DNA from: Calothrix sp. NIES-4105
Lineage (GTDB): Bacteria > Cyanobacteriota > Cyanobacteriia > Cyanobacteriales > Nostocaceae
NCBI GenBank assembly: GCA_002368415.1
Contig: AP018290.1
Span: forward strand, 10,893,121-10,925,120
Length of the DNA stretch: 32,000 bases
Direction: 5' to 3'
Shown here: piece by piece, positions 3,390 through 24,490 of the stretch
Layout: each line of letters starts with the position of its first letter
How positions within the stretch are numbered: position 1 is the stretch's first letter
Notes under the pieces: generated by a model
Told to the model about the DNA's origin: nothing
Database searches by the model: none
The model's input: the letters and a program-made list of their open reading frames with translations, nothing else
Translations under genes and position numbers: made by a program

Positions 3390-3397
3390 TGATTATA

Positions 3398-3471
3398 TTA
3401 CCACAGAGACGCAGAGTACACAGAGAGATGTTTGTTTAATTAACCACAAAGGACACAAAGGACACAAAGAG
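3398..3471. repeat. Intergenic short-repeat block A (TTACCACAGAGACGCAGAGTACACAGAGAG) plus B (AACCACAAAGGACACAAAGGACACAAAGAG)
   Basis: Read directly. B (3442-3469) is the perfect reverse complement of 4888-4915. A (3398-3425) matches the reverse complement of 5073-5100 at 25 of 28 positions. Confidence 0.75.
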
Positions 3472-3485
3472 AAGAGAGAAGATGT

Positions 3486-6399: not shown

Positions 6400-6401
6400 T
6401 T

Positions 6402-8669: not shown

Positions 8670-8946
8670 GACATTCTAGGGTACTTTATAATTCTATAAA
8701 AAACTAGGTTTTACTGAGTTTTTTTGTTAACATGTTGTAATAAAAACAATCAATTTGCCTATAAACAAGGTTTCTTTACGTAAGTCCTAATATTAAGATT
8801 TATCTAAATTTAAGTATATTTACTGAATAGTATCAGTAATAATAACTGTTAAAATCTAAATATACGGTAGAGCTTGTTGACAATGCTGCAAAATGCAAGG
8901 TAAATGTATCATTACAAGCATTGTATAACCATTACCATTCTCAATT

Positions 8947-9915
8947 GTGTATATGAATGAATTAAGTAGCTACAAAAATAGAATTTTCTCAAACTTATAC
9001 AATAGTCTTTATGAGAATTACAAAGGTTTAACCAAAAATCCTAAATGGCTATTAATGCGTAAAATATCTCGATTTCAACTTGGTCGAGTCATTATGCATT
9101 TTTTTACGCAAAAAAGTAAATTATCTCAATTAACCATAAGTGAAGATAATTCATATTTTACAAACCTTAATGTTTCTAACGTTGTCAACGAATTGAAAAG
9201 CAAGGGAGTTGTTTTAAACATCACTCTACCTGAACATTTAGTTCAAGAAATCTTACAATTTGCTGAATCTACAGTTTGTTACGCAAACCGAAAATCAGAA
9301 TTAGGCTTTTATTATCATCAAAAGGAACAAGCGCAAGCTCAGTCTAAAAAACAGTTTATAGTAGGTAGCTATTTTAACACAGCTTCGGATTGTCCTGCTA
9401 TTAATAAAATGCAAAGCGACCCTATATTATTAGAGATAGCTACTCAATATTTAGAGCGAGAACCAGTACATCAAGGTTCGTTACTTTGGTGGAGTTTTCC
9501 TGGAGAAAGAACTTACCAACAACTTAGTTCTAATGGTCAACTTTTTCACTATGACTTAGATGATTATCGTTTTCTTAAATTCTTTTTTTATTTAACTGAT
9601 GTAGATGAACAAAGTGGACCTCATATCTGTGTTCGTGGCAGTCACAAGCAAAAAAAGCTTTCACATCTGATACTGCGGAAACGGGAAACAGATGAAGATA
9701 TCATCAAATATTATGGTTTAGAATCTTTAGTTACTATTTGCGGTAAAGCTGGTTTCGGATTTGTGGAAGATGGATTTTGTTTTCATAAAGGAGTTCCTCC
9801 TATCAATAAAAATCGTTTAATCTTACAACTAGAATTTGCCACAACTGACTATGGAATGCAGCATGATATTAGAGAGACTTCAGTATTAAAATGCATTCAG
9901 ACAAAATTAATGTAG
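8947..9915 (+). CDS. PhyH-like Fe(II)/2-oxoglutarate-dependent dioxygenase
   Basis: LFHYDLDD carries the HxD facial-triad motif. FFFYLTDVDEQSGPHICVRGSHK matches the PhyH-type 'enGpl.v.pGSH' segment. A distal His lies in CFHKG. The start could instead be the ATG at 8953. Confidence 0.7.
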   Translation: MYMNELSSYKNRIFSNLYNSLYENYKGLTKNPKWLLMRKISRFQLGRVIMHFFTQKSKLSQLTISEDNSYFTNLNVSNVVNELKSKGVVLNITLPEHLVQEILQFAESTVCYANRKSELGFYYHQKEQAQAQSKKQFIVGSYFNTASDCPAINKMQSDPILLEIATQYLEREPVHQGSLLWWSFPGERTYQQLSSNGQLFHYDLDDYRFLKFFFYLTDVDEQSGPHICVRGSHKQKKLSHLILRKRETDEDIIKYYGLESLVTICGKAGFGFVEDGFCFHKGVPPINKNRLILQLEFATTDYGMQHDIRETSVLKCIQTKLM

Positions 9916-9936
9916 AGACGTTACATGTAACGTCTC
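9915..9936. terminator. Perfect 22-nt palindrome GAGACGTTACATGTAACGTCTC between convergent genes
   Basis: Read directly. It overlaps the TAG stop of the dioxygenase and lies 35 nt from the stop of the convergent 259-aa gene. There is no U-tract, so it may be a dispersed hairpin repeat acting as a bidirectional terminator or RNA stabiliser. Confidence 0.45.
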
Positions 9937-9970
9937 CACCGACACGGGCAATTAATTAGATATGATATGA

Positions 9971-10750
9971 CTATTTAATTTCCACAGTTAATTTATAGCT
10001 AGCATTACCGCGCGTTCCTCCAACTACAATTTTATAATCTCCATTTGCTGGGAGTTTTCCGCTCCAAGTTGTTACTCCTTCCTTGATAGTTTTACCATCA
10101 GGTGCGATGACATCGAATGCAGCATTTTTTTCCAAAGAAGTAATTTTCAAATTCATTCGCTGTCCTCGCTTGGCGCCAACTAAGTAGGTGTCGCGCTCAC
10201 CTCTAATTACAGATTGCTCTATTGTCTTCGAGTTAGTACCATTAGCAAACTTGATTCGTACAGCCTTTCTTGTTGGTGCTGTTTCTTCGCTAGAAGCTCC
10301 ACATTTGGCTCTAGTAAAAGATTCTCTACCTGTATTTAAACTAGATTCGGTAATTGTCCAGGTTGCTTGAGTATTTTGAGTATCGTTTTCAATCTTAGTG
10401 ACAATTCTTAGTTTAGCTTTATCACCAGCTAATTCTCCTGTCAGCGTTTGTTGGTAGGAAGTATAATAACTTTCAGCAGGATTCTGAATAGTTGCTTGCA
10501 CAGTACCATTAACTTTATTGGTAGCACTAATATTCACTGTGGCACTTGCATCAAGCGTTTTTGTTTTAGCGGAATAGCAATATGTACCAGGCGCCAATTT
10601 TTTACCAGCTTTATTTTTATAAGTTGTAGATATAGCAGTTGCTGTATTGGGTTGAGTGGATGCGCTTGCAGAATTGGAATTTAGGGTTAAACTCGTCGAG
10701 CATAAAAGAGTAATAACAGCAGCACTACGTAAAAACAGTTTATTTATCAT
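9971..10750 (-). CDS. Secreted protein of unknown function with a C-terminal beta-sandwich-like (PPC-like) module
   Basis: Signal peptide MINKLFLRSAAVITLLCSTSLTLNSNSASA. The mature region is Thr/Ser/Asn-rich. The C-terminal segment YLVGAKRGQRMNLKITS...FDVIAPDGKTI...GKLPANGDYKIVVGGTRGNASYKLTVEIK resembles pre-peptidase C-terminal-type domains. Confidence 0.65.
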   Translation of the reverse strand: MINKLFLRSAAVITLLCSTSLTLNSNSASASTQPNTATAISTTYKNKAGKKLAPGTYCYSAKTKTLDASATVNISATNKVNGTVQATIQNPAESYYTSYQQTLTGELAGDKAKLRIVTKIENDTQNTQATWTITESSLNTGRESFTRAKCGASSEETAPTRKAVRIKFANGTNSKTIEQSVIRGERDTYLVGAKRGQRMNLKITSLEKNAAFDVIAPDGKTIKEGVTTWSGKLPANGDYKIVVGGTRGNASYKLTVEIK

Positions 10751-10881
10751 GATTTTTAGGATTTGCGCTTTGATATCGTCGTAAATAGTAAAACAAGCTG
10801 ATTATCGCTGATTACGGAAAAAATCCAGGTAAAGCGTAATACATTTTTTATATTCATCACTAAGTGGCTTAAAGATAGATA

Positions 10882-11667
10882 TTACTTCTTCTGCTTCTTT
10901 TTCTTTTTGAACAACTGCTTAAATTTAAGAGAAAGAGGGTTAAAATCAAAGACTTTGCCAGTACTAAACAACTGAAAACCGAATGATATAGCCGCAAACG
11001 ATGCAAGAACAGAGAAAAGAGACACTGAACCAATGATCTTACCATTGGCGATAAATATAGCAATACCTAACCCTATTAAAATCCATCCCAACCTACGTTT
11101 ATCTTTTCCACCGTAATTTAATAGAATTACTCCGACGATACACAGTATAGTACCAGGCGCGCTACGTAAGTAGATACCAACATATATTTTCGTACTCAGA
11201 AATATAATCCCGCCAATAATCAGCCCTAAGCCAAGTAATTTACTAGCAATTGTAATTTCTGATTCAAAGTCTGTATCATCCGAATCTTCTTCATCTTCAT
11301 TCGTGACAATTTTTGTTGGCGCGCTGCCACCTTGTTGCCGAAAGATGAAACTTACCTTATCACCTTGTCCTAATGAAATCTTGTCACCAAATTTTATTGG
11401 TTGAAAAACTTTAGGTTGCAGTTTAACGCCATTTACATAAGTACCGTTAGAACTACCTAAATCAGTAATTTGATACTCTGAGCCATTAACCCAAATTTGT
11501 GCATGGACACGCGATACAATATCAGCATCTGGAAAACCAGACACATCAATATCCGGCTGCTTTCCATCATCGCCAGGTTTGCCAATCAAAATTACAGAAA
11601 GATTTGCAGGCAACACCAACCTTTCATTCGTTTGGAGATGATAAAGTTCTAAAGATACACTCTGCAT
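10882..11667 (-). CDS. FHA-domain protein with C-terminal transmembrane region and poly-Lys tail
   Basis: FHA signature ILIGKPG...DIDV...VSRVHAQI...YQITDLGSSNGTYVNG. An acidic linker is followed by about 4 predicted TM helices, ending FKKKKKQKK. Confidence 0.8.
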   Translation of the reverse strand: MQSVSLELYHLQTNERLVLPANLSVILIGKPGDDGKQPDIDVSGFPDADIVSRVHAQIWVNGSEYQITDLGSSNGTYVNGVKLQPKVFQPIKFGDKISLGQGDKVSFIFRQQGGSAPTKIVTNEDEEDSDDTDFESEITIASKLLGLGLIIGGIIFLSTKIYVGIYLRSAPGTILCIVGVILLNYGGKDKRRLGWILIGLGIAIFIANGKIIGSVSLFSVLASFAAISFGFQLFSTGKVFDFNPLSLKFKQLFKKKKKQKK

Positions 11668-11956
11668 AGTTATGAAGACTCTTTTTTACAAGTGTCTCCA
11701 CATATACAGAATTTGAGAAGCGAGAAAACCCCTAAATACGTAACTAAATATTGCAAATCATACTATGTATAAAAAGTGGCATTAGCTTTGATGGTGTTGC
11801 TGGTGCAGAAGGACGGTTTGATGAAGTGCGACAATTCCAAATTTTTCCTTATCTCTTCTGCGTGTCTTTGCGGTAATTTGTTGTGTAGAACAAGATGTCA
11901 AACGCGCGGAAGCATTAATTCAACTCGCTCAACTTGGCTCATATGATTTGAAAATG

Positions 11957-12535
11957 TTATTCTTGTAGTTCAAACTCAACATTATCGTAAATATCTGCTA
12001 GAGTAATTTCAAATTTGACAGAATTTAACGAAATCGTCGCATTCTCATCGTCATATTCGGAAAATATCCATTTATTATTATCAGTTTTGGAATATTGCTC
12101 AACGTGTATTGTATACTGGTCAATCAAAAGATACTCTTGAAAGCTTTCGATTGTCCGATAAGCACTAAATTTTTCATCTTTATCGTTACTTTTTGTAGAT
12201 TTTGATAATACTTCAGCAATGATTAGTGGATTAATAATAGTATCTCTACGTCCTTCTTGAAGCTCTAAAGGCTTTTTAACTACCATCACATCAGGATAAG
12301 TATGAATTCGCTTTTTAGGAATCCATAATCTTTGGTCTGTCATAAAAACCCGATGATGACGCTTCAAAGTAGAGTTGAGCGCACCGCTTAGGTTGAGAGC
12401 AATCTGGTTGTGATTTGGTGTTCCGCCTGTCATAGAAATTATTGTACCATCAATGTACTCATGACGCTCTTGAGAATTAACTTCGAGTTCCAGGTATTCT
12501 TCGGCTGAATAGTGCCTTTGTTCTTGCGAAATCAT
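11957..12535 (-). CDS. Uma2-family (DUF820) putative endonuclease
   Basis: SAEEYLELEVNSQERHEYIDGTIISMTGGTPNHNQIALNL ... IAEVLSKST is the characteristic Uma2 pattern found at high copy number in cyanobacteria. Confidence 0.8.
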   Translation of the reverse strand: MISQEQRHYSAEEYLELEVNSQERHEYIDGTIISMTGGTPNHNQIALNLSGALNSTLKRHHRVFMTDQRLWIPKKRIHTYPDVMVVKKPLELQEGRRDTIINPLIIAEVLSKSTKSNDKDEKFSAYRTIESFQEYLLIDQYTIHVEQYSKTDNNKWIFSEYDDENATISLNSVKFEITLADIYDNVEFELQE

Positions 12536-12745
12536 AAAATTCTAGTCCTAACGGTTAGAAATGATTCTTTTATACTATACACATTAATATATAAGTAAAA
12601 TCGTATCTAATAACTATGGTTAAATAGGTTGCCAAACAATTAAGTTAAGTTAATTCTTTATTAGGTGGTCATGATTTTCATCTATGACCATCCTAAATAA
12701 AAAATATCCAAAATGTTCTTGTGGGATAGGCATCAAAAACCCGTC

Positions 12746-13741
12746 CTACACCCTATAACCGCTTTCAATAGAGACAGCTTGGTCTGTTGATTTTGGTAGT
12801 GAATTAGCTCGTACCGCGCGGAACATCCCAAAGCGGCAAAGGCCAGTGCCGAATGCTAACCGCATTAGTAGTAAAGTAGGTACTTCGCGTAAAGATTTAA
12901 TAAAACCAGATATCCCAAAACGTACCAGTCCAGATGGTCGAGCTACTCCTTGCCAGATCGAATCTATCCATGAAGGAAGTGTTTGTTGCGTCCAATCTGC
13001 CGTTATTACGTTTCCCTCAACTAGTCCCGTTGCCTCTAAAAGTTCAGAAAAGCCTTCAATGCTGGAAAAAGCCGGATGAGACCATTGATCTAATAGTTGC
13101 TGCATTACTGGTTTTTCCCAAAAATTCAAAGGCGCCTGTCGGTCGTCCCTTTGGTTCCAGTCTGCCACAACAAGTATTCCACCAGGTTTTAACACCCTGA
13201 TTAATTCTTTAGCAAAAACGGCTTTATCTGGCATATGTGGTCCAGCTTCAATCGACCAAACTACATCAAAACTAGCATCTGGGAAAGAAAGTGCCATCGC
13301 ATCATCCACTAAAAATTGCACATTCAGTTCATCAGAAGTTAACTGCTGCGCGCGTTGGACTTGTTGCGGACTGATTGTAACACCCGTAACTGCAAATCCA
13401 TAATCCCGTGCTAATATGCGACTGCTACCACCAATTCCACAGCCTACATCCAAAAGCGTGGCGCCGTATGGTAATTTATCTAAACCACCCCAACGTACCA
13501 TTTCATCTACAAAATCAGATTTAGCAACCAGAAAATCCTTCCGTTGCGGTGGTGAACCATAATGACCCAAGTGGATATGTTCACCCCAGTAAAACTCTAA
13601 AATACCGTCTTGAGTCCATTCATCATAGGAATTAGCTACAGAGTTAGATGATTGATAACGCCGAGCAGTGATTAAATATAATGCAATCAAGAACGTCAGT
13701 ACTGCAACAACTAGTCCCAGCGCAGAAAGATACAGACTCAT
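12746..13741 (-). CDS. 2-methyl-6-phytyl/solanesyl-1,4-benzoquinol methyltransferase (MPBQ/MSBQ-MT, Synechocystis sll0418-like)
   Basis: Near-colinear match to my memory of Sll0418: an N-terminal TM helix, then YDEWTQDGILEFYWGEHIHLGHYG, the SAM motif LLDVGCGIGGSSRILA, DDAMALSFPDASFDVVWSIEAGPHMPDKAVFAKEL, ILVVADWNQRDDRQ and LCRFGMF. Confidence 0.85.
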   Translation of the reverse strand: MSLYLSALGLVVAVLTFLIALYLITARRYQSSNSVANSYDEWTQDGILEFYWGEHIHLGHYGSPPQRKDFLVAKSDFVDEMVRWGGLDKLPYGATLLDVGCGIGGSSRILARDYGFAVTGVTISPQQVQRAQQLTSDELNVQFLVDDAMALSFPDASFDVVWSIEAGPHMPDKAVFAKELIRVLKPGGILVVADWNQRDDRQAPLNFWEKPVMQQLLDQWSHPAFSSIEGFSELLEATGLVEGNVITADWTQQTLPSWIDSIWQGVARPSGLVRFGISGFIKSLREVPTLLLMRLAFGTGLCRFGMFRAVRANSLPKSTDQAVSIESGYRV

Positions 13742-13949
13742 TCTAATAAACCTTAATATTTCTTTACAATTTTATCCTATAAGCAGGCTAAAAGTATCTG
13801 TAAACCTCTGTTTGTTGAGTGTAAGTAGTTTGCTAGATTGTGGTTATTCCCTTCCTGGTGAAATACAAGTAATAAGAAATGGTAAGTTTTGTTTGCTGTG
13901 CTACTAACCTGATACTCTAAATTAGAAGTTATGTATTACAAGATGTAAG

Positions 13950-14123
13950 ATGCCAACTGCTGAACAAGGTATTAGATGTGTTATACTAAGCCAAACTTTA
14001 ACTAATACTCTTACGCCTATCTTTATTGTCCGGCTTGATGAACGTACAGGTAACTTGTTTATGCTGGCAGGCGATACTATAGAAATAGAGATTTATCGTA
14101 ATGGTTTGTGGAGGTTCTTGTAA
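13950..14123 (+). CDS. Small conserved-looking protein (57 aa), first of an overlapping pair
   Basis: ATG at 13950, TAA at 14121-14123. The protein reads MPTAEQGIRCVILSQTLTNTLTPIFIVRLDERTGNLFMLAGDTIEIEIYRNGLWRFL. It is below the ORF-track size cut-off. Its stop overlaps the next ATG (TAATG). From memory it resembles the cyanobacterial DUF6888 family. Confidence 0.45.
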   Translation: MPTAEQGIRCVILSQTLTNTLTPIFIVRLDERTGNLFMLAGDTIEIEIYRNGLWRFL

Positions 14124-14332
14124 TGAAACCTGAATTTAGTGCTATGACCAAAGCGGAGCTAAGAAGTTACGTCATTGCTCACCCCAACGATAACGAAGCA
14201 TTTTACATTTTTGTAGACCGCTTTACATCTGAAGCATCCCCAGAAACCTTTGATATCCCAAATTCTAGTGATGAGATTGAGAAAGTGGAAATTTTAATTA
14301 GGCAGAAACTGGAACAGACAAAAACTAGTTAA
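14123..14332 (+). CDS. Small protein (69 aa), second of the pair (DUF6887-like)
   Basis: MKPEFSAMTKAELRSYVIAHPNDNEAFYIFVDRFTSE... From memory it resembles a short family common in cyanobacteria. The ATG at 14123 is preferred over the GTG at 14108 because of the TAATG coupling. Confidence 0.55.
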   Translation: MKPEFSAMTKAELRSYVIAHPNDNEAFYIFVDRFTSEASPETFDIPNSSDEIEKVEILIRQKLEQTKTS

Positions 14333-14431
14333 GCTAATGTATGTCTAAGCTATATATTAGGGTAGGGCAATTAAAGGTGCCCATCCCACTCATTGTTTGA
14401 ACACGCACACACTTTAACTTCTATCATTGGG

Positions 14432-14699
14432 TACATCTGTTATATCCGTTGCCCACTTTCACCAACCATAATTCCCCGTCCTGTCAAAGCTACATACACT
14501 AAGTTTGGTGTACGCATATCACCTTCCATATAAGTAATCCCTGGAAACTGTAATATATCCGGGTCACTAATATGAATCCATGATTTGCAATATCTTCAGA
14601 TTTGTATATTGCGTCTTTAGTTGCTTTATTTACATAATTATAGACGTAGATATACGGCTGCTTATTTGATTTACCTTTGCCAAAATTTATAAATTCACA
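14432..14699 (-). pseudogene. Orphan, frameshifted copy of the last ~86 codons of the BNR/GH74-like gene (displaced 3' end; att-flank repeat)
   Basis: Colinear with 21921-22189 at roughly 88-90% identity by eye. A 1-nt deletion (GATTTGCAATATC versus GATTTACCCATATC) breaks the frame. It is not attached to any upstream coding sequence. Confidence 0.8.
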
Positions 14700-14765
14700 T
14701 CTTTTTTGTGGAGTTCCCTAAATGAAATTGTGACATCTCCTACACCAACCGCAAGTTATGTCGTT

Positions 14766-14825
14766 TACAACGTCTACAACGTAGTTACAGTAAGAGTTTA
14801 TCGTTGTTGTCATTTTCTACAACGT
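14766..14825. repeat. Three direct copies of TACAACGT near the left end of the element
   Basis: Copies at 14766-14773, 14775-14782 and 14818-14825, the last reaching the first base of the dnaB-like stop codon (14825-14827). Candidate recombinase-binding or iteron-like sites. Confidence 0.35.
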
Positions 14826-16153
14826 TAAGCTCTACCATATTTATCAGATAAGTCAACATCGCTGAAATTTCCTATATCTGTTTCAAATAATACCTTACAC
14901 ATGCCTGTAGCACCATTACGATTTTTAGCTACATTTATCTCCATTACTCCTTTATCTTGTGTGTCTGGATTATAATATTCGTCTCGATAAAGAAGTAACC
15001 CAATATCCATATCTTGTTCTATATCACCCGAGTCTTTAATATCAGCTATTGTTGGGCGTTTATTTGTTTGATTCTCCACACCTCTATTAATTTGGGCTAG
15101 TGCTATAAATGGCACATTAAATTCTTTGGCAATGTCTTTAAATGCACCAGAAAACTTACCAACTGCTTGCGCTCTATTACCTGCCGCTCTATCCCCAAGT
15201 TTTTGAATATAATCCATTACTACTAAACCTAAACTTCCTTTAGAGGACTGAACTCTTCGCAGTACAGAAGACACCCTTGAAGGGTTTTGGATACTAGCTG
15301 GCGTATCATCAATAATAATAAGTAATTGGTTTAAAGCTACTACAGCTTGTTTTAAATTATCCATTTCGTCTCGATATATCTGATTGCTCATCAGCCTACT
15401 AGAATCAATACCCGAATGCATTGCCAAAAATCTTTTAGTTAACTGCGATTTAGACATTTCCGCAGAAAAGAAAACAACAGGTAGTTGTTGATGGATTGCA
15501 ATATGATTAGCAAAATGGCAACCTAACCAGGTTTTACCCATTGATGCCCTAGCAGCGATTACAATTAAATCCTGTTTATTTAATCCTCCTATTAATGCAT
15601 CTAAATCTTTTAATCCAGTAGAAAAGCCTGGAGTATACCCTTGTTGTAATTCATCAAATACTTCTCTTATCGACTCACTTATTAGTTGTGGTTGAAATTT
15701 ATCTTGCTTGTTTGCTGTTAAATTAAAAATTTTATTCTCTGATTGTTCTAGGACTGCTTGAACTCCTTGTGTTGTATCGTAGCCTAATTCCACAATTTCA
15801 TTACCAGCCCTAATTAGCTGCCGACGCAGGTATTTATCCAAAACAAGCTTTGCTAGGTTATCTATATTTATAGCTGATACTATTTCAATTAATTGAGCTA
15901 GCTGATTCTTCCCACCAACTTTAGTTAATAGTTTATGGTCGGATAACCAAGATGTAACTGTTACTAAATCGGTTGGTTTACCCTGATGGTATAATTCTAA
16001 TATTACTTTATAAATTTGTTGGTAAGCAGGAACGTAAAATGCTTCTGGCACTAAAATATCAGCAATTCTACCAATAGCATTTGGGTCTAACAAGCAACCA
16101 CCAAGTATGTCTGATTCTGCTTCAATAATTTGTGGAGGTATTTTATCATTCAT
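14825..16153 (-). CDS. DnaB-family replicative-type DNA helicase (element-encoded, 442 aa, intein-free)
   Basis: N-terminal DnaB domain (PPQIIEAESDILGGCLLDPNAI...PAYQQIY...GKPTDLVTV). Walker A is IVIAARASMGKTWL and Walker B is LVVMDYIQ. ALAQINRGVENQTNKRPTIADIKDSGDIEQDMDIGLLLYRDEYY is the canonical DnaB C-terminal signature. Its ATG overlaps the upstream stop (ATGAATGA). Confidence 0.9.
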   Translation of the reverse strand: MNDKIPPQIIEAESDILGGCLLDPNAIGRIADILVPEAFYVPAYQQIYKVILELYHQGKPTDLVTVTSWLSDHKLLTKVGGKNQLAQLIEIVSAINIDNLAKLVLDKYLRRQLIRAGNEIVELGYDTTQGVQAVLEQSENKIFNLTANKQDKFQPQLISESIREVFDELQQGYTPGFSTGLKDLDALIGGLNKQDLIVIAARASMGKTWLGCHFANHIAIHQQLPVVFFSAEMSKSQLTKRFLAMHSGIDSSRLMSNQIYRDEMDNLKQAVVALNQLLIIIDDTPASIQNPSRVSSVLRRVQSSKGSLGLVVMDYIQKLGDRAAGNRAQAVGKFSGAFKDIAKEFNVPFIALAQINRGVENQTNKRPTIADIKDSGDIEQDMDIGLLLYRDEYYNPDTQDKGVMEINVAKNRNGATGMCKVLFETDIGNFSDVDLSDKYGRA

Positions 16154-17018
16154 GGGGTTTATCCATATCTATAAAAATATTACTAATTTCTGCCAGTTCA
16201 GTTATAGACACTAGTGTTCTGTCTGAATCGGCATGAGATAATGTTTTTGTTACTGGCTGTGCTTCAATATTTTTTGAAGTAGATTTTTGCGATGAAGGAG
16301 AAGGCTCCCATTTCTCTCTGATTGCTTGAACAACTAAACCACCTATGTTGTTAACATCGTTCTGTTGGATATACTGCTCAACTGCTAAAAGTGACCTAAT
16401 TACCTCTTGCTCATCCAAAGATGTAATAAGTTTAGTAAGAGTAGAATTAAGTTTAATTTCTAAGCTCTCTAGTTTTTGGTGGATTGATTCAGGTATTTCC
16501 TTCCCTTTACGAGAGACTTTTGTAATTGGTATTACCCTTTGAGGTATTTTAGATTCAAGATTAGCTAATTCCTGTTTTAATTCTTGAACCTCATGTGTTA
16601 GTTTTTCATTTTCTAACTTTAAACGTTCAGTTAAATCATTTGCTCCTTGCATCTGATAAAGCTTACCAGTAAGCGATTCGTTAATTTTTCGTAACTCATC
16701 AATTTCTACTCTCAAACGCTTATTTTCTTCCCTCAATGTTGAAATAATTACAGTTTTAGAGTTATCCGATGCTGGCGGAACTTCCTTAAGTTTAGGCTTT
16801 TGTTTCTGCTGGTCACGTAAAGTTTCAATTCTATTTCTCAAATCTTCCTGCTTGTACAAGTAAGCAGTCGATACATTAGCAGCAGTAGCAACAGATTTAA
16901 AGCTAATTATTTGACCCTGTTTTATCATCCTCTCAAGTGCTTTCTCCACTCGTTCTGCTGTTATGAGCGCTTTCTGTGCTGCCGCCTCTTGTAAAGCTTC
17001 TATCTTCTTATTAGTCAT
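16146..17018 (-). CDS. TnpC-like accessory protein: N-terminal HTH-like segment plus long coiled coil (290 aa)
   Basis: The N-terminus (ALQEAAAQKALITAERVEKALERMIKQGQIISFKSVATAANVSTAYLYKQEDLRNRIETLR) resembles the small third gene of Tn554-type three-gene modules (DUF6262-like, from memory). Residues ~90-160 are heptad-rich (ENKRLRVEIDELRKINE...LKLENEKLTHEVQELKQELANLE). The ATG overlaps the upstream stop (ATGACTAA). Confidence 0.55.
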   Translation of the reverse strand: MTNKKIEALQEAAAQKALITAERVEKALERMIKQGQIISFKSVATAANVSTAYLYKQEDLRNRIETLRDQQKQKPKLKEVPPASDNSKTVIISTLREENKRLRVEIDELRKINESLTGKLYQMQGANDLTERLKLENEKLTHEVQELKQELANLESKIPQRVIPITKVSRKGKEIPESIHQKLESLEIKLNSTLTKLITSLDEQEVIRSLLAVEQYIQQNDVNNIGGLVVQAIREKWEPSPSSQKSTSKNIEAQPVTKTLSHADSDRTLVSITELAEISNIFIDMDKPHE

Positions 17019-18603
17019 TATCTGCCTCCAAGGTTTTAATTACTTTCTCTAAGTTGTCTTTGATAGGCGTATTTTTATGAACTTGTAGCTGCCAACCACA
17101 ATTCTGGGCTTTTTCTAAAACGTTGTTAGTGCGCTCTAAAGTATCTTTTAGAATGGGCAGGAAGTTTTTGTTTGTTCTCCAGTGTGGGCAGTTGTAGCAG
17201 CCATCAAAACCAGGAATATCACAATCTCCTAATACCTTGGGTCTAGCACAATAACCATGCTCCAATGCTCTGGCTTGCACATTTTTTTTGAACCACTCTA
17301 AATCATCATTACTAGAGAGTATCGTTTCGTCTAATTCAGTAGTTTCACCTTGGAAATTAACTACTTTTGATTCGTGATACTTTTCAACTTCTTTTCTGAG
17401 CGTTTCATCATGAATGTGAGCATATACCATTGTCATCGTTGGCGATTCATGACCTAAATAGCGCTGAACAATATGTTGTGGAACACCATTATTTATCATG
17501 CGAGTTCCAACTGTATGTCGAAATTGATGAGTCTGAAAATTCCAAGTTTTGCCTGTGCTTTCGCAAATGTTAAATTGCTCTGCTAAACGTTTTAAATGAT
17601 TAGCAAATGATTGGTCTGACATAACTCTAGGTACAGGAACAAATTTTGAAGATGCTTTTCTTCCACAAAAAAGGTACTTATAATCTTTACCAAAATTCTG
17701 TTGAATATAAACCTGCTGCTCTTTAATAACTTGAGCAAGTTCTATAGATATAGGTAGGGTTGTTTCAAAATTCATCTTCCAACGCATAAATTGAATAAAC
17801 CACCCACCCTTATTATCTTGTTTGAGGCAATCTAACCCTAGTTGACATAGCTCACCTATCCTCAAACCACATTCTTGAATAACTAATACCATTCGCATTA
17901 TTGGCTCTGGTAATACATCTAAGTGTTGATTTAGTTGTCCAATAACCTCTTCTGGAATATAACGAGGTAAAGCCTTATCGCGTTTTGGATAATCTTCTTT
18001 GCGTACCAAATAAGGTTCAACTGTAAACCATTTATTAGCGGAACCGACTTCAAACAAGGATACTAAAGCAGAAATACACTTACCTTTAGTTATTTGAGCC
18101 AATGATTCTTTGTTGAGGTAAAACAAATAATTAATGATTACTTCCCTAGTAATATTTTCTATTTTGTTTATCTCAGGCTGATTCAACAAGAATTTTGAAA
18201 AATAACGAAATCGATACAAAAAAGATTGTAAGCTTTGAAAACTGCTTGTCTGACTAGCTTTGTACTTAATAAATTTTTTAATGTATACCTTTAACCACTC
18301 TTGATAAATATTCCGATTAAAGTTAAGTTTATCTCCATCATTACTGTGAAGCTTAACCTGTAAACCTAAATCAGCAGCAGTCCATACATCATCGCTTTTC
18401 ACTAGTTTTTTGCGATTAGCGAAAGGAACAAACTGAGCGTCGCAATTTTTACACCGATATCTTTGTTTTCCTGATTTTTTAAACCCTGCTTTTATATAAT
18501 TATCACTTCCACATTTTGAGCAAACAATTTGTGCTGGTAAAACAACCTGAAGTTCTGTTTTTACTTGAAGTTTCTGCTCTAATTTATTGTTCATTTTCAC
18601 CAT
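17011..18603 (-). CDS. Large tyrosine recombinase (Tn554 TnpB-like) with N-terminal zinc ribbon and C-terminal Cys cluster
   Basis: Catalytic residues are GLRIGELCQL (Arg), HQFRHTVGT (HxxR) and LGHESPTMTMVYAHI (His...Tyr). The N-terminal zinc ribbon is CSKCGSDNY...YRCKNCDAQF. The C-terminal Cys cluster is HGYCARPKVLGDCDIPGFDGCYNCPHW. The start is ATG 18603 or 18594, and either overlaps the upstream gene. Confidence 0.85.
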   Translation of the reverse strand: MVKMNNKLEQKLQVKTELQVVLPAQIVCSKCGSDNYIKAGFKKSGKQRYRCKNCDAQFVPFANRKKLVKSDDVWTAADLGLQVKLHSNDGDKLNFNRNIYQEWLKVYIKKFIKYKASQTSSFQSLQSFLYRFRYFSKFLLNQPEINKIENITREVIINYLFYLNKESLAQITKGKCISALVSLFEVGSANKWFTVEPYLVRKEDYPKRDKALPRYIPEEVIGQLNQHLDVLPEPIMRMVLVIQECGLRIGELCQLGLDCLKQDNKGGWFIQFMRWKMNFETTLPISIELAQVIKEQQVYIQQNFGKDYKYLFCGRKASSKFVPVPRVMSDQSFANHLKRLAEQFNICESTGKTWNFQTHQFRHTVGTRMINNGVPQHIVQRYLGHESPTMTMVYAHIHDETLRKEVEKYHESKVVNFQGETTELDETILSSNDDLEWFKKNVQARALEHGYCARPKVLGDCDIPGFDGCYNCPHWRTNKNFLPILKDTLERTNNVLEKAQNCGWQLQVHKNTPIKDNLEKVIKTLEADND

Positions 18604-19699
18604 CTCTTGCTGCCAAATACTTGTCGTACTCTATCCGTAAATCGTTATCTGTTAAATGCACATAGGTATTAATGGTGGTTTGAATATCTGTATGTCCTAA
18701 CCGTTTTTGCACATACGCCATTTCCCAGCCTGACCTGATTAATTCTGTTGCATGAGTATGTCTCAATAAGTGTGGATTAACTTTTATGTCAGTTTTTTTA
18801 GACAATCTCCTAAATAAACTATCAACAGTTTTGTAACTTAATGGTGTACCAATTTTTCCCTTTCCCGGAGCTTGAATAACTACAAAAACAAAGTCACAGT
18901 CAATATCTTCTGGGTACTCGTCAATTAAATAAGCTGAGTACCATTGCATAAGTTCTTTACTAACATGAACTATCCGTTCTACTCCAGATTTAGCTCTAAC
19001 GTAGTTAATATTATCTAATCTTGGTACAACATGAATCTCATTGTTTTTACCTGTAACCATATCTTCATGTCTCAGCCCCAGAGCCTCCCCTATTCGTAGC
19101 CCTGTTTCGTATAACAACCTGACTAAAAATTTATCTCGTAATGTGTTACAAGCGGAGACTAATTTGTTAACTTCTTCAGCAGTTAAACATCCAGGGAATT
19201 TTTTCGGCTCTTTAATTTTTAGCAACCGCGTTTTAACTTCTTTCCCTTTACTTATATGGTGTAAAAAAGGTTTATATTTACGACCTGGCTGTAATTGATA
19301 GCGATAAACATAAACGTCAACTTCTTTGGTTACTTCAATACGTTCTTGAAACTCATAAAATCCACAAACAGTTGTTAAACAGTGATTAATTGTTTTCTCG
19401 CAACGTTTGGAAACTTGTGGTTGGATAGATAATACTCCTGAATTAGGATTTCTCAGCCAATGGATAAAGTTTGATAACTCCTCCATATTTATCTCAAACC
19501 AACTTAGCTTTGAATCCTTTAAGAACGCCCAAAACAGCTTCAGGTTATGAGCATAAGTTTGAATCGTATTTGGAGAACGCCCTACACTGTCTAAATAATG
19601 CAAGTACTTTTGAATTGGCTCAATGGGTAAATAGTCATCGTCCAGTACCATCCAAACCGGACGGTCGGTGTCTGGGATGATACCCTTTTGAACTTTCAT
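18584..19699 (-). CDS. Tyrosine recombinase (Tn554 TnpA-like, ~371 aa)
   Basis: A core-binding-type N-terminal domain (SPNTIQTYAHNLKLFWAFL). Catalytic residues are GLRIGEALGLRHEDM (Arg), HLLRHTHATELI (HxxR) and LGHTDIQTTINTYVHL (His...Tyr). I prefer the ATG at 19699 (MKVQKGIIPD...), which is preceded by GGGGGCAGTGAG, over the 19765 start in the track. Confidence 0.85.
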   Translation of the reverse strand: MKVQKGIIPDTDRPVWMVLDDDYLPIEPIQKYLHYLDSVGRSPNTIQTYAHNLKLFWAFLKDSKLSWFEINMEELSNFIHWLRNPNSGVLSIQPQVSKRCEKTINHCLTTVCGFYEFQERIEVTKEVDVYVYRYQLQPGRKYKPFLHHISKGKEVKTRLLKIKEPKKFPGCLTAEEVNKLVSACNTLRDKFLVRLLYETGLRIGEALGLRHEDMVTGKNNEIHVVPRLDNINYVRAKSGVERIVHVSKELMQWYSAYLIDEYPEDIDCDFVFVVIQAPGKGKIGTPLSYKTVDSLFRRLSKKTDIKVNPHLLRHTHATELIRSGWEMAYVQKRLGHTDIQTTINTYVHLTDNDLRIEYDKYLAARDGENEQ

Positions 19700-19823
19700 C
19701 TCACTGCCCCCAATACCGATATTTACGCTATAGACGTAGTTTACTATAAAGCGTAAATATGACAACAGCGTAGTGATAAAACTTAATATCAGCTACGCTG
19801 TTGTTGTTGTTGTTATTTATAAT

Positions 19824-21233
19824 TTAATAAGAGATAACTTGCGGTATAGTGTAGGCATCCGAAAGAGTCTTTTTCAAGATATCAATGATTTCCTTCGCGG
19901 TACTTTCTTCCATAGTTCCAACTACAGAAATCTTCCCACTACGGCGTCTTATTCTGGGGAAAATGCCCAACCCCAGTCGCTTCAAATTAATAGAGGCATT
20001 AATGTCTCTATCAACTTTCAACATTTCTTTCTCATCCCAATATTCTGGAATATCAGTATCAGTAAAAACTATTTCATTCCGATAGCTGAGAACTTGGGAA
20101 GAATACGCAGGATTTTGAGGTATTACAACGGCTCCAGCTTTTCCGGCTATGTGACCCAATATCTCAAAAAACTGTCCAAAAGCAGCATCCATCCAAGACT
20201 TATTCAATCCCGACTTTGCAGATTGTCCATTTGGCAAATATTTACCATCTTCGTCTTGTTTGGGTGCATTTCTTTTGCTCAAACCTTGTAAATTTAACTT
20301 TTCTGGGAAAAATACTTTCTTCCCAGTACGGACTAGTTTGTGAGCAGTTTTATATTGAAAATCTTTACGACTTCTAGCTATTTTTTGATGCCGTCGAGCT
20401 TCTTTTTTAGCTAGTTTACGTCGTGACTTACTGCCACGTTTACGTTTATTTCTATCTATCGAAATTTTGTCTAGTTTGTGCTGATTCCTGCGTAAAGATT
20501 TTAAACTTGCTAATTTAGTCCCTTCAGATGTTGCTAGATAATCATCTTCGTGCAAAACAGCATCTAATCCTATTGAATTTTCCCATGTTGGGGTAATTGA
20601 ATCAGGATTAAATTCCGGCACAGAAGTATCTTCTAGGCACATTTGCATGTACCAACCGTCAACCTTTTTAGTTACACCAACTTGTTTTAATTTAAAACCA
20701 AGTGGCAACGGTCGATGCATTCTAACTTTAACAACTCCAAGTTTCGGCAGACGCAAATAAAGCCAATTCTTACGAACTAGTTTTATCCAATCATCATTTG
20801 CACTTGCGAATGTCATGGTTCGGAAACTCGCTTCTGTTTTAAAGCGTGGTTTACCTGACCGCTTACCATTACAATCACCAAGAATATAACGAGCGAAAGC
20901 TTCATCAACTCGTTTACAAATATCCTGAAGGATAGTTGAGTCAACACGAGTAAAATCAAGCAATTCCCCGCTATGCATTACCCGAACCAAGTCTTGCTTG
21001 ATAATGGGTAATTGCAATTTCTGATTGTAATAATTTGGGCGATTCCCAAACAGTGTTGGAAATATTTCTTTCCACTGCGGAAATGCTTGTAATTGCAAGT
21101 GATTATTCTGCCACCAAGTGAAGCGTTCACCCAACTGACGGTTATACCAGTAACGGGAGATCCGCAACCAATCATTAAGCTCTAGCTTTTGATTAGTGTC
21201 TGGATAAAATTTATACTGGTATGTAGTCTTCAT
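19824..21233 (-). CDS. tnpB: IS605-type TnpB (RuvC-like RNA-guided nuclease family), variant without zinc-finger cysteines
   Basis: The start is MKTTYQYKFYPDTNQKLELNDW (ATG at 21233). The RuvC triad candidates are IGLDAVL (Asp), VFFPEKLNLQGL (Glu) and KVDRDINASINL (Asp). Between NPAYSSQ and DRDIN the usual CxxC...CxxC is replaced by VLSYRNEIVFTDTDIPEYWDEKEML. Confidence 0.85.
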   Translation of the reverse strand: MKTTYQYKFYPDTNQKLELNDWLRISRYWYNRQLGERFTWWQNNHLQLQAFPQWKEIFPTLFGNRPNYYNQKLQLPIIKQDLVRVMHSGELLDFTRVDSTILQDICKRVDEAFARYILGDCNGKRSGKPRFKTEASFRTMTFASANDDWIKLVRKNWLYLRLPKLGVVKVRMHRPLPLGFKLKQVGVTKKVDGWYMQMCLEDTSVPEFNPDSITPTWENSIGLDAVLHEDDYLATSEGTKLASLKSLRRNQHKLDKISIDRNKRKRGSKSRRKLAKKEARRHQKIARSRKDFQYKTAHKLVRTGKKVFFPEKLNLQGLSKRNAPKQDEDGKYLPNGQSAKSGLNKSWMDAAFGQFFEILGHIAGKAGAVVIPQNPAYSSQVLSYRNEIVFTDTDIPEYWDEKEMLKVDRDINASINLKRLGLGIFPRIRRRSGKISVVGTMEESTAKEIIDILKKTLSDAYTIPQVISY

Positions 21234-21255
21234 AAACGCTCCGACAAGAGCGTAA

Positions 21256-21284
21256 TTGACTTGGTGTTTGAATATGGTTATACT
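21256..21284 (+). promoter_or_regulatory. Sigma70-like promoter for tnpA (TTGACT, 17 nt spacer, TATACT)
   Basis: -35 TTGACT at 21256-21261 and -10 TATACT at 21279-21284 with a 17-nt spacer. It lies about 18 nt upstream of the GTG at 21302, in the divergent tnpB/tnpA spacer. Confidence 0.4.
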
Positions 21285-21301
21285 ATCAAAGTGTTTATAC
21301 G

Positions 21302-21721
21302 GTGTCAAGCGTGAAAGAAGATTTTATTTCCCGTGCCAGAGGGGTGTCAGACCTCAAGGCACATTTGGTGTTGACTACAAAGTACCGTAGAAAAGTATTT
21401 ACAGGAGAAATGATTAATCGGCTGCATGAAATACTGAAAGAACTATTGAAAAAATGGGATTGTGAAGTGGTTGATTTTAACGGCGAATCTGATCATGTAC
21501 ACTTGCTTTTTCGTTACACTCCACAAACTGAACTACCCAAATTTATTAATAACGTTAAGACTGTCACAAGTCGTTACTTACGCAAAGAATTTGCTGATAG
21601 AATTAATCAATTTTATAAAAAAGATGTTCTTTGGAATGGCTCATATTTTATTGCATCGTGTGGAGGCATAACAGTTGAAACACTTAAAAAGTATGTCGAA
21701 TCCCAAAACAAGCCTGAATAA
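21302..21721 (+). CDS. tnpA: IS200/IS605 Y1 (HUH) transposase TnpA
   Basis: LKAHLVLTTKYRRKVF, the HUH motif SDHVHLLF and the catalytic-Tyr region NGSYFIASCGG. The start is GTG 21302 or GTG 21311. Confidence 0.85.
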   Translation: MSSVKEDFISRARGVSDLKAHLVLTTKYRRKVFTGEMINRLHEILKELLKKWDCEVVDFNGESDHVHLLFRYTPQTELPKFINNVKTVTSRYLRKEFADRINQFYKKDVLWNGSYFIASCGGITVETLKKYVESQNKPE

Positions 21722-21928
21722 TTTGTCAAAAATACAACGGGAGCATCCACTTGTTCCTAATTAATCAGGAATTTGGTGGAAGGGGCGTTATATTTTTGAC
21801 TGCCTTATATCCCGACACCAACCACTTCGTGGTATGGTGCGGGGCTTACGGCAAGAAGCTAAATTAAATATGTAGTGTTGGGTTCCGCAAAGCCTTCACC
21901 CAACCAACGAGTTTATCCGTTACATCCG

Positions 21929-24490
21929 TTATATCCGTTGCCCACTTTCACCCATCATAATTCCCCGTCCTGTCAAAGCTACATACACTAAGTTAGGTGT
22001 ACGCATATCACCTTCCATATAAGTAATCCCTGGAAATTGTAATACATCAGGGTCGCTGATACGAATCCATGATTTACCCATATCTTCAGATTTATATATC
22101 GCGTCTTTAGTCGCGTTATTTACACGTCCAAATATGTAAATATACGGATGTTTATTTGATTTACCTTTGCCAAACGTTATAAATTCACAGCTATTAACTG
22201 ATGTGATTTTATTAAAAGTCTTTCCACCGTCAGTTGAATGATACAAAGGATTTCCATTTACATCTTCAGGGTTACGCGCGAAACTTATCCAAATGTCTCC
22301 TTGTTGTGTAGGATTACTTATAATAGCAGGGCGAATTAGCCAACCAGGAAAATTACTAGCTGCACTTTTATTCCAATTGGCGCCACCATCATTACTATAA
22401 TAGAAGCCATCAACATTGAAGTAATAGAAAGTTTTACCTTGGGGGTCTTTTCTATCTGCTGCTAAAATATATGAACTTAACCAAGGATTAATACTGTTTG
22501 ACCATGATTTAGGTAAAGCTTGGTAGTGAAGATGGTCGTTGTTTTTTTCGTCAAACGGTTGAGGTGGGGGATTATAATCTAAATTGCGCGCAATTCTCCA
22601 AGTTTTACCACCATCATTAGTATAGTGTGTCCAAGTTCCCCAAGTTGGCGCCCATACCATATTTTGCGGATTAGTTGGGGACATGGCAATTTGTCCACCT
22701 ATTGCATAAACTTTCTCTTTTCCTGACTTGTCACTTTTCCAAAGTTCTTCTGTAGGGATAGACTCGAATGCTTTCCAAGTTCGACCATTATCGCTAGTTA
22801 CACCATGTATTCCCCAAAACCCTTGCCATTGATGAAAACCTACAAACGCCGCATAATCAGGATTATTGTAGGAATAGTCCATTCCTGTTGCACCTGCTAC
22901 GTGAGGAAATGGAACGGGATATACTTTCCAGTCAGGGTTTGCCGATTTGAAACTAGGATTAATAAGTACACCTTGTGGGCTAATACTTTTTGTTGGTACT
23001 TCATAGCGGCTAACATGGCGAAACCCTATTTTATCTTGTGTAGCGCTTAATAAATCTGCACCCCCTTGTGCTTTAGGTTTGGGTGGTACCCGCACCATAT
23101 TTGAGTCTAATTCTTCTAAATTATTCATCAACCATTGGTAAACAGGAGTTTTAACCGTCACATCATCACTACTTGCAACTCCCCAACCGTTTGTCCACCA
23201 AACTTTTTTTAAATTACTTGGGTCAAATATAATTGATGCGGCGCCAGTTGAAGCGTAAGATTGATAGTAGCCTGGTGCAGTAGGATTCACTTTATCCTTG
23301 GGATTGTTTGCATCAAAGGCGCCCATATACATTGTTTGTTTATTCCAACTTTGTCCACCATTGGTGGACATATAAACAAACTTATCAGCAACTGCCATTA
23401 TTGTGTTAGGTTGATTTGGCTGTACGGTAATAGCTGAATAGACTCTTTCTTCTGCATCAGGTGTGATAGATGTCCAATTACCATTACTATACTTACGAAT
23501 ACTTCCTGATGTATTTTGACCATTACCACCCCAAGTTCCAAATGCTACATATAATGTTCCATCACTAGCAACTGCCGCGCGTAAAGGATTATTGGCGCCT
23601 TCAATATTATTCCACGAATTACCACCATCAGTACTGCGCCAAACTCCGCTGCCATGAACACCTACATATATAGTTTGTGTTTTACCTATACTTTTTGCTT
23701 TGTCAAACACAACAAATGTAAAACCAGGTATATCTTTATTTTCCTTACCATCTTTTTGATATTCTGGCAGACTACTAGGTTCAGGTAAATTACCTGTAAC
23801 GCGCGTCCAATCTGCATTACCGTCTTTTCTCCATAGACCATCACGTCGCGAAGCAAAGTAAATTAATTCTGATTTATTTGGGTCAACTGCTAACCGTTCC
23901 CCTGTATCTGAACGATATGCTTGATTTGGGCCAACATAAATATTATGTTTCCCTAAACCTGTTGGTTGCCATGTAACACCTTTATTACTAGATACTAATA
24001 TTTCACCTGAATATTTATATTTAAGCTTTTCTTCATCTTTAAAAGTCAAATTATTACGATTTATGGCAGCATAGACACGACTTGTCAATCCATCAACAGT
24101 AATACTTTCTACGCCAATTCCACCAGAGGAGAAATTAGTATCAAACATGTCCATCAAAGGCAACCATGTTTTATTCTCACGGTCAAAACGATAGGCGCCA
24201 CCAATATCAGTACGAACGTATACATCATAAGGCGAAGTTGGATTAATTACTAAACCTGTAACATAACCCATTCCTTGAATATTCACATTGCGCCAAGTAA
24301 ACAAGTTATTTCCTTGTGTTGACCTTATAGGTACTGGTGGAGGTGCTTTTGCGCGTACTAAAACAGGTGCTTGTACTGTTTCATTTTGAACACCCTCCAC
24401 AACAGGAGCTTGTGTACAAGCGTGTAAATTTAATAGTACTAACACACTTGCTGTCAATTGTAATAAGAATAAAATTAGGCGCCGTTTCAT
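21929..24490 (-). CDS. BNR/Asp-box repeat, double beta-propeller lipoprotein (GH74-like / sortilin-Vps10-like glycosidase)
   Basis: Lipoprotein signal MKRRLILFLLQLTASVLVLLNLHAC. At least 8 Asp-box motifs (SxDxGxTW type): SSNKGVTW, STDGGNSW, STNGGQSW, TSDNGRTW, TNDGGKTW, SNDGGANW, STDGGKTF and SEDMGKSW. Its last 86 codons fall within the right copy of the element-flanking repeat. Confidence 0.8.
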   Translation of the reverse strand: MKRRLILFLLQLTASVLVLLNLHACTQAPVVEGVQNETVQAPVLVRAKAPPPVPIRSTQGNNLFTWRNVNIQGMGYVTGLVINPTSPYDVYVRTDIGGAYRFDRENKTWLPLMDMFDTNFSSGGIGVESITVDGLTSRVYAAINRNNLTFKDEEKLKYKYSGEILVSSNKGVTWQPTGLGKHNIYVGPNQAYRSDTGERLAVDPNKSELIYFASRRDGLWRKDGNADWTRVTGNLPEPSSLPEYQKDGKENKDIPGFTFVVFDKAKSIGKTQTIYVGVHGSGVWRSTDGGNSWNNIEGANNPLRAAVASDGTLYVAFGTWGGNGQNTSGSIRKYSNGNWTSITPDAEERVYSAITVQPNQPNTIMAVADKFVYMSTNGGQSWNKQTMYMGAFDANNPKDKVNPTAPGYYQSYASTGAASIIFDPSNLKKVWWTNGWGVASSDDVTVKTPVYQWLMNNLEELDSNMVRVPPKPKAQGGADLLSATQDKIGFRHVSRYEVPTKSISPQGVLINPSFKSANPDWKVYPVPFPHVAGATGMDYSYNNPDYAAFVGFHQWQGFWGIHGVTSDNGRTWKAFESIPTEELWKSDKSGKEKVYAIGGQIAMSPTNPQNMVWAPTWGTWTHYTNDGGKTWRIARNLDYNPPPQPFDEKNNDHLHYQALPKSWSNSINPWLSSYILAADRKDPQGKTFYYFNVDGFYYSNDGGANWNKSAASNFPGWLIRPAIISNPTQQGDIWISFARNPEDVNGNPLYHSTDGGKTFNKITSVNSCEFITFGKGKSNKHPYIYIFGRVNNATKDAIYKSEDMGKSWIRISDPDVLQFPGITYMEGDMRTPNLVYVALTGRGIMMGESGQRI

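Follow-up and report, generated by a model that had tools for sequence, protein, structure and literature searches.

Two nested mobile elements lie between two probable alleles of a gene end in Calothrix sp. NIES-4105

Recombinase genes that lie between two copies of a gene end raise the question of whether the recombinases made the duplication. We analyzed such a locus in a 32,000-nt stretch of the genome of Calothrix sp. NIES-4105 (assembly GCA_002368415.1, contig AP018290.1, positions 10,893,121 to 10,925,120 of the forward strand), which we call the window and whose positions are counted from its first letter. The 3' end of a gene encoding a BNR/Asp-box, Sortilin-Vps10-like protein (GH74-like, 'sialidase family') occurs twice in the window, and the two copies are separated by 7,221 nt. 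The first-pass annotation, made from the sequence alone, interpreted the locus as a single element that had integrated site-specifically into the 3' end of this gene. We found that the locus is composed of two nested mobile elements of known kinds, an IS200/IS605-family insertion sequence (IS) and, inside it, a putative Tn554-family transposon, which lie between two probable alleles of the gene end.

The direct repeats at positions 14432-14699 and 21921-22189 are colinear and share 89% identity over 269 columns (blastn E = 1e-81), in line with the 88-90% estimated earlier by eye. The intact open reading frame (ORF) of 853 aa has its last 86 codons and its stop in the right copy, R, while the left copy, L, is an orphan in which a single 1-nt deletion between about 14589 and 14590 breaks the frame, with the stop at the same position as in R. 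L also carries a dense lesion at nt 55-65 that changes IFGRV to VYNYV. Identity between the copies is 94% in the stop-proximal 155 nt (14432-14586 versus 21921-22075) and 84% in the remaining part (14590-14705 versus 22080-22195). In gene orientation the 5' boundary of homology is sharp, at TGTGAATTT (22181-22189 and 14691-14699), and on the 3' side clear homology reaches 8 nt beyond the stop codon, after which it is weak and fades out at about 19 nt. R is followed by a post-stop motif, TAACGGATGTAACGGATA, which is common to several orthologues. Regarding the repeat, the state of its two copies and the limits of homology, the first-pass annotation was confirmed, and its statement that only recombinase, helicase and IS DNA separates the copies was essentially right. 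Mobile-element DNA makes up 7,135 of the 7,221 nt, and the only other sequence is a spacer of 57 nt next to R and one of 29 nt next to L. The conserved post-stop motif continues into the 57-nt spacer, where there is also a weak hairpin (GTTGGGT...ACCCAAC). The IS thus sits in what is, with both parts added, an 86-nt spacer downstream of the BNR-like gene.

The nesting of the two elements became apparent from comparison of the IS with its relatives. The IS shares 86.7% DNA identity with the IS at locus L048, whose TnpB is 90% identical, from 21845 to 19841, where the similarity stops. With three independent IS copies, homology breaks at 19841 and restarts at about 14752, and upon deletion of the transposon in silico the homology to L048, L053 and L054 runs unbroken from 21865/21863 to 14729/14727. 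The transposon insertion point lies in the loop of the right-end hairpin of the IS, between CCGC and TTGCGG. This hairpin reads CCTACACCACACCGC-TT-GCGGTTGGTGTAGG in intact IS relatives and CCTACACCACACCGC-TT-GCGGTTGGTGTAGGAGAGTTCACC at the intact right end in L048, and the hairpin restored in the window has the same shape as that of an intact relative (-8.8 versus -12.2 kcal/mol). It is nearly certain that the IS is the outer element and the transposon the inner one, in the loop of the right-end hairpin, which the transposon entered later than the IS had arrived. We also considered the sequences CCTACAC...CCGC and GCGG...GTGTAGG as inverted termini of the transposon and rejected them, as the intact IS relative shows that they are the arms of the IS right-end hairpin.

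The outer element has a Y1 HUH transposase (TnpA), a TnpB of the RNA-guided nuclease family and subterminal imperfect hairpins at both ends, as expected for IS200/IS605. Its left end begins with TTTAGCTTCTTGCCG at 21863 and its right end finishes with ...GGAGATGTCACA at 14729. The left terminus starts with TTTAGCTT and the right one finishes with GTCACA, and a related unit in Nostoc sp. PCC 7524 is bounded by both of these termini; the tail GTGTAGGAGTATGTCACA of the right end terminates the PCC 7524 unit as well. The left-end hairpin, at about 21811-21844, has a folding energy of -15.9 kcal/mol (z = -4.5). No target duplication was found in the IS flanks. TnpB is 100% identical to the database protein P0121, while the relatives at 88-92% identity have 457 aa and cover 97%. 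The C-terminal tail of the window protein is unlike these relatives because the ORF reads via the 5' arm of the hairpin into the transposon. The tnpB ORF crosses the first hairpin arm and stops 14 nt inside the nested transposon (window 19824-19860); in the intact relative L048 the end of the tnpB ORF falls in the second hairpin arm. With its right-end hairpin split and the 3' end of tnpB parted from the downstream flank, the IS is probably crippled. Its right end would no longer be recognised by TnpA, and a tnpB-associated RNA would lack the flank that naturally supplies its guide.

The inner element has a left end TTATCTC (19837 to 19831) followed by (AAC)5 and a right end GACATAA (14762 to 14756), and it is flanked by the hexamers CGCAAG (19843 to 19838) and CTTGCG (14755 to 14750). 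Four overlapping minus-strand ORFs form one operon that encodes, according to Pfam and NCBIfam, tyrosine recombinases of 393 and 530 aa, a DUF6262 protein and a DnaB helicase. The large recombinase has an N-terminal zinc ribbon of the IS1/IS1595 type. Its residues R248, H359, R362, H385 and Y394 are invariant in 22 homologues, and their putative catalytic roles are assigned by position only. DnaB, whose ORF overlaps tnpC, scores 464 bits, compared with a curated equivalog cutoff of 385 for TIGR00665. The fexA unit on pH29-46, which we take to be Tn558-type as judged by its gene content, encodes a 637-aa integrase that shares 41.9% identity with the large recombinase along 73% of the length of the latter. 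The gene next to this integrase, in the position of TnpC, is annotated 'DUF6262 family protein'. This neighborhood, together with the identity of about 42%, indicates that DUF6262 corresponds to TnpC and that the module and the tnpA-tnpB-tnpC genes of Tn554-family elements are homologues. On the evidence of its gene trio, this homology and the 6-bp footprint described below, the inner element appears to fit the Tn554 family.

We analyzed how related copies of the transposon are bounded. A search with the large recombinase gave 985 homologues at E < 1e-20, of which the best 120 are 53-100% identical to it and come from cyanobacteria wherever the source names an organism, with P0001 being 100% identical. 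A scan of metagenome contigs contributed 80 transposon loci. In all 86 related loci (L042-L047 and L056-L135) the order is recombinase A, recombinase B and DUF6262 wherever the contig covers the genes, and relatives of the trio in soil and peat metagenomes reach down to 35% identity (35-45%). The family has a left terminus TTAT.TC, next to which the cyanobacterial copies have an A/T-rich stretch and then (AAC)n, and a right terminus GA.ATAA that is preceded by GTTGT repeats. Both junctions were assignable for 15 copies; none of these had long flanking repeats, and 9 had perfect 6-nt flanking direct repeats. These 6-nt footprints indicate that the family inserts via a 6-bp crossover and makes no long duplications. 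In Tn554-related elements, 6 bp of the donor left flank turns up at the right junction of the new site (PMC10214605). Copies whose two hexamers are not the same conform to this rule, and such donor-left to recipient-right pairs occur among the natural copies, with the left hexamer of L042 (CAATAG) equal to the right one of L043 and the left hexamer of L046 (TAGAAG) equal to the right one of L047. Nostoc sp. PCC 7524 carries the trio at three sites with different neighbors and one metagenome-assembled genome carries it at two. The copies are 99.9-100% identical over sharply bounded units, and no flanking direct repeat longer than 10 nt was found at any of the five. Such near-identical copies in different flanks support, indirectly, that the family is probably mobile.

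DnaB follows the trio in L046/L047 (12524-13855), L056, L057, L096 and L104. In the cyanobacterial branch, six or more independent copies have it 3' of tnpC, which hints that the helicase may have a role in the replication or copy-out step of the transposon.

These results bear on the proposal that the whole 7.5-kb block is one integrative element, which would have used its own tyrosine recombinases for a crossover at AAATTCACA/TGTGAATTT and replaced the native end, L, by R. The locus has the expected appearance, since direct repeats of a gene terminus flank recombinase-coding DNA, the insertion is absent from relatives, and one copy is intact and the other decaying. However, the transposon that holds the recombinase operon has its own family-conserved ends, at 19837/14756, and is embedded in the IS hairpin loop. 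Between it and R lie 2.0 kb of IS and the 57-nt spacer, and between it and L lie 27 nt of IS (hexamer, 3' arm of the hairpin and tail) and the 29-nt spacer. Moreover, the 15 family copies have 6-nt footprints and diverse targets, and no sister element occurs at the gene in 41 species. We consider this proposal highly improbable. As the transposon touches neither copy and neither type of element makes long repeats, the boundaries of the repeat are not recombinase crossover sites. Hence, there is a strong case against these recombinases as the makers of the duplication, although its footprint looks like a textbook example of their action. It would be wrong to annotate the locus as an island that targets gene ends and has an attachment site of 268 bp.

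We compared the locus with 41 orthologous loci in which the gene is present at 53-87% identity. None of them (0/41) had a second gene end, element genes or inserted DNA. The first-pass annotation had suggested a search for an empty site in relatives, with the gene followed directly by the flank at 14333-14431. Relatives do have an empty site, with a single gene end and no insert, and in three loci (L001, L002 and L004) the gene is directly followed by the Uma2 gene of the left flank of the window. The flank 14333-14431 itself was matched in none of the relatives. Every relative has a different rearrangement downstream of the BNR-like gene. The closest relative of the gene, P0248/L055 (Logan ERR10900011, 2472-4583), is 91% identical and ends at about codon 700 at the contig end, and is therefore uninformative on the gene terminus. 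The tail of its sequence diverges and stops a few bases short of the end of the contig, and the gene may be interrupted in this strain, too.

How did the gene end come to be present twice? We polarised the differences between L and R against six orthologues. Of 30 differences, 19 fell on the L lineage, including the frameshift and the lesion at nt 55-65, and 9 fell on the R lineage, where third codon positions account for 7 of the 9. The two copies differ by a dS of about 0.3, and their dN/dS is 0.25, which falls to 0.15 when the cluster at nt 55-65 is left out; for an L that evolved neutrally from a duplication in situ onwards, a value of ~0.55 is expected. Outside the two complex lesions, 7 of 9 substitutions on the L lineage are at third codon positions (P = 0.008 versus the neutral expectation). 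The low dN/dS and the third-position bias favor alleles that diverged while both were functional and were joined later. We conclude with moderate confidence that the 268-bp repeat represents two diverged alleles that evolved mostly as functional sequence and would then have been united by a separate recombination event.

A duplication in situ of the last ~290 bp of the gene, with the second copy placed about 86 nt downstream and since decayed, and with the IS inserted between the copies by chance, is unlikely. It would account for L and R being each other's closest relatives (89% versus at most 87% to any orthologue), for the sharing of 9 of 11 lineage-specific sites and for a base composition without a foreign signature. 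However, the sequence after L is unlike the spacer after R, contrary to what a tandem origin requires, and on this ground we rejected a simple tandem duplication. The dN/dS of 0.15-0.25 is well below ~0.55, the point substitutions in L are biased to third positions, and a dS of 0.3 implies a very old event, yet the duplication is absent from related species.

An older, unrelated integrative element could also have made a duplication resembling attL and attR, if its interior was later deleted to about 86 nt and the remnant was entered first by the IS and afterwards by the transposon. The order of gene, copy, insert, second copy and flank is that left by islands that target gene ends, the sharp 5' boundary at TGTGAATTT could be an old crossover site, and a functional surrogate end borne by the element would fit the low dN/dS between L and R. 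Against this, no trace of an integrase or another island gene is left, the 86-nt spacer opens with a native-looking post-stop motif common to orthologues, no island is present at the site in 41 species, and a nearly complete deletion is required as an additional step. We regard such an origin as doubtful, to the same degree as the duplication in situ.

The first-pass annotation held that the host protein now carries an element-derived C-terminus and suggested a comparison of the two ends with orthologues to find the native one. The comparison does not bear out such a C-terminus, since L and R group together and either could be native. The native copy was not decided by identity to orthologues, by the C-terminal alleles of the ten closest homologues, by sliding identity or by site patterns. 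The 3' third of the gene shows an affinity shifted towards L005 (Fisher P = 0.009), and L shares this shift with R at 9 of 11 sites, indicating a regional property and no sign of R being foreign. Judging by their behavior, the evidence supports that L and R are a working gene end and a displaced, decaying one. In this respect, and in recognizing inserted mobile DNA, the earlier interpretation was right, while its mechanism and its element boundaries were not.

We propose the following sequence of events as the best explanation of the whole locus. An IS-marked gene end would have arrived from a close Calothrix relative, which we grade as the most likely and most economical event. The gene side would have been joined by homologous recombination and the other side by an illegitimate join at TGTGAATTT; because the downstream region is rearranged in each relative, homology for a clean double crossover would be lacking on that side. 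Alternatively, a single-crossover (Campbell-type) integration through the 268-bp homology could have led to the same outcome. One copy would have been left orphaned and would later have gained the frameshift and the clustered lesion. The transposon would have moved into the IS by a tyrosine-recombinase crossover over 6 bp, with the donor-left hexamer copied to the new right flank. We also considered the capture of flanking DNA by read-through of the disabled right end of the IS and rejected it; the 29 nt between this end and L are not gene sequence.

Several points weigh against this explanation. The codon-position test is not significant when all 17 L-lineage substitutions are included (P = 0.17), and the choice to count the indel and the cluster at nt 55-65 as one event each was made post hoc. 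Gene conversion between L and R could have distorted the divergence estimates, as the two parts of the repeat are 94% and 84% identical. A donor genome, an empty spacer or an intermediate was not found, with the closest relatives being just 87-91% identical, and L and R share most lineage-specific sites, neither being visibly foreign. The hexamers of the window copy, CGCAAG and CTTGCG, do not form a direct repeat, and it is not reconstructable where exactly in the hairpin loop the crossover fell; the rule of donor-left carry-over permits non-identical hexamers such as these. Taking everything together, we give the combination of an IS in the spacer, a transposon in the IS hairpin and separately joined, diverged alleles a slightly better than even chance. 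The features on which it is based are listed in Table 1.

Table 1. Features of the duplicated gene end, the nested elements and the targets of the transposon family. Positions are those of the window unless another locus is named.
Feature	Position	Strand	Details
BNR/Asp-box, Sortilin-Vps10-like gene, intact	21929..24490	-	853 aa; ORF; Pfam Sortilin-Vps10 and BNR
Right copy (R) of gene end	21921..22189	-	last 86 codons, stop and 8 nt; continuous with BNR-like gene
Left copy (L) of gene end	14432..14699	-	orphan frameshifted allele of last 86 codons and stop
Spacer between R and IS left end	21864..21920	-	57 nt; outside both mobile elements
Spacer between IS right end and L	14700..14728	-	29 nt; no homology to gene body upstream of R
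IS200/IS605-family IS, outer element	14729..21863	-	interrupted by nested transposon
IS tnpA (Y1 HUH transposase)	21302..21721	+	PF01797 Y1_Tnp, E = 2.5e-41
IS tnpB (RNA-guided nuclease family)	19824..21233	-	469 aa; Pfam OrfB_IS605, TNB; PF01385, PF12323, PF07282
5' arm of IS right-end hairpin	19841..19855	-	CCTACACTATACCGC; 5.1 kb away from its 3' arm
3' arm and tail of IS right-end hairpin	14729..14752	-	GCGGTTGGTGTAGGAGATGTCACA
Putative Tn554-family tyrosine-recombinase transposon, inner element	14756..19837	-	5,082 bp; termini conserved with L046/L047 and others
tnpA-like small tyrosine recombinase	18584..19765	-	393 aa; PF00589, E = 2.8e-38
tnpB-like large tyrosine recombinase	17011..18603	-	530 aa; PF00589; NF050000
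tnpC-like DUF6262 protein	16146..17018	-	290 aa; PF19776
DnaB-family replicative helicase, transposon cargo	14825..16153	-	442 aa; TIGR00665
Hairpin-loop target: window IS right end	19841-19855 and 14729-14752
Hairpin-loop target: PCC 7524 IS left end	L042/L043/L044, about 8754-8794 and about 12562-12592		same ACCGC/GCGG stem top
Hairpin-loop target: AAAGCCGTCC-hexamer-GGACGGGG hairpin	L046 and L059		common to both
Hairpin-loop target: L062	L062
tnpB coding-sequence target, residue ~297	L091, L092, L093
tnpB coding-sequence target, residue ~340	L063, L068
tnpB coding-sequence target, residue ~390	L058

The insertion into an IS hairpin is not confined to the window. In 7 of the 15 copies with assigned junctions, representing five independent targets, the reconstructed empty site is a hairpin with the hexamer in its loop, and other copies are inserted in tnpB coding sequence (Table 1). 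The transposon was found in or against IS200/IS605 sequence at no fewer than 11 loci, the enrichment over background being an impression only. At L047 (8259-8789 and 16594-18105) and in the left flank of L062, we observed apparent insertions in ORFs for reverse transcriptases of the group II intron type. The family may generally favor other mobile elements as landing sites. We think it rather probable that these transposons form a large, undescribed branch of the Tn554 family, which counts about 1,000 large-recombinase homologues, most of them cyanobacterial and the more distant ones from soil bacteria, and in which some members carry DnaB. This branch would prefer mobile elements, chiefly the subterminal hairpin loops and tnpB of IS200/IS605, using and disabling the DNA structure that the host IS needs to transpose.

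Nostoc sp. PCC 7524 has a 5,676-bp composite (8754-14429) at two sites, L042 and L044, with identical outer boundaries. It starts with the IS left end and the nested transposon, which are followed by tnpA, tnpB and the right end of the IS. This IS may thus still be able to move, taking along the transposon that sits in its left-end hairpin. However, the two composites have different inner left hexamers (CAATAG versus GCGAAG), which a simple move in one piece fails to explain. L043 looks like a gene-less miniature version of the composite.

The 853-aa BNR-like protein has no 100% match in a large protein database, unlike the recombinase and TnpB of the same genome, and the deposited record may lack an annotation of the gene or carry a flag on it. 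Downstream of it, comparison of window positions 11957-14431 with L001-L005 and L039 revealed a rearrangement hotspot. Genes for DUF6887 and a methyltransferase lie downstream of the BNR-like gene in the window only; L002 has a 3' fragment of a methyltransferase gene beyond Uma2, on the other side, and L003 runs on into the 9900-to-3592 block of the window. An Rfam scan of the window gave no matches, the window has no tRNA genes, and its base composition shows no anomaly. We considered three ORFs at 5137-8523 (420, 618 and 137 aa) as a second recombinase module and rejected them, as they encode a glycosyltransferase, an amidohydrolase and an Mpo1-like protein. The minus strand at 699-4853 contains two large STAND/AAA NTPase genes (nSTAND1 with TPR, 896 aa, and KAP/ATPase_2-like, 455 aa), which may be defence-related.

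The newly seen Tn554 branch and its habits are more valuable than the original finding. The three-gene system of Tn554 is present in hundreds of cyanobacterial and environmental sequences, and its footprint rule is visible in natural copies. The many natural pairs of donor and recipient sites could be used to study the unresolved transposition pathway of Tn554, and the branch represents a case of one transposon family parasitising another. We found nothing relevant on cyanobacterial Tn554-like elements, DUF6262 or the targeting of IS hairpins in the literature, our coverage of which was incomplete.

Tn554 itself inserts into att554 in radC. The transposon in the window shares with the Tn554 family (Tn554, Tn558, Tn553 and Tn6674 of Staphylococcus and Enterococcus) the same three-gene core in the same order. 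It likewise has no long target duplication and a 6-bp donor-left footprint (PMC10214605). Tn554-related elements were reported only from Staphylococcus and Enterococcus, with the host range not formally investigated (PMC10214605, 2023). Whereas the reported hosts of the Tn554 family are Firmicutes, the branch found here is present in cyanobacteria and has relatives at 35-45% identity in soil and peat metagenomes. Its large recombinase has an IS1-type zinc ribbon and the Firmicute proteins align only from about residue 131, its TnpC has about 290 aa instead of about 120, its cargo in the window is a DnaB helicase instead of resistance genes, and its targets are the hairpin loops and tnpB of IS200/IS605, not att554.

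The outer element resembles IS608, ISDra2 and IS605 in its Y1 HUH TnpA and divergent TnpB, in its subterminal imperfect hairpins with a common arm motif and in the lack of a target duplication, and differs from them in that a foreign transposon of 5.1 kb occupies its right-end hairpin loop. SEs and GInts are multi-recombinase and non-conjugative, like the inner transposon, but have four core genes, including a recombinase-like protein without the catalytic motif, where the transposon has three; SEs have been reported only from Gammaproteobacteria. Finally, islands and prophages that enter the 3' end of a tRNA or protein gene and bring a replacement terminus produce the same topology as observed here, with an intact end, an insert and an orphan, diverged copy. 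Unlike in those systems, the repeat boundaries in the window match the ends of no element, and the only recombinases are those of the nested transposon, which has its own 6-bp junctions.

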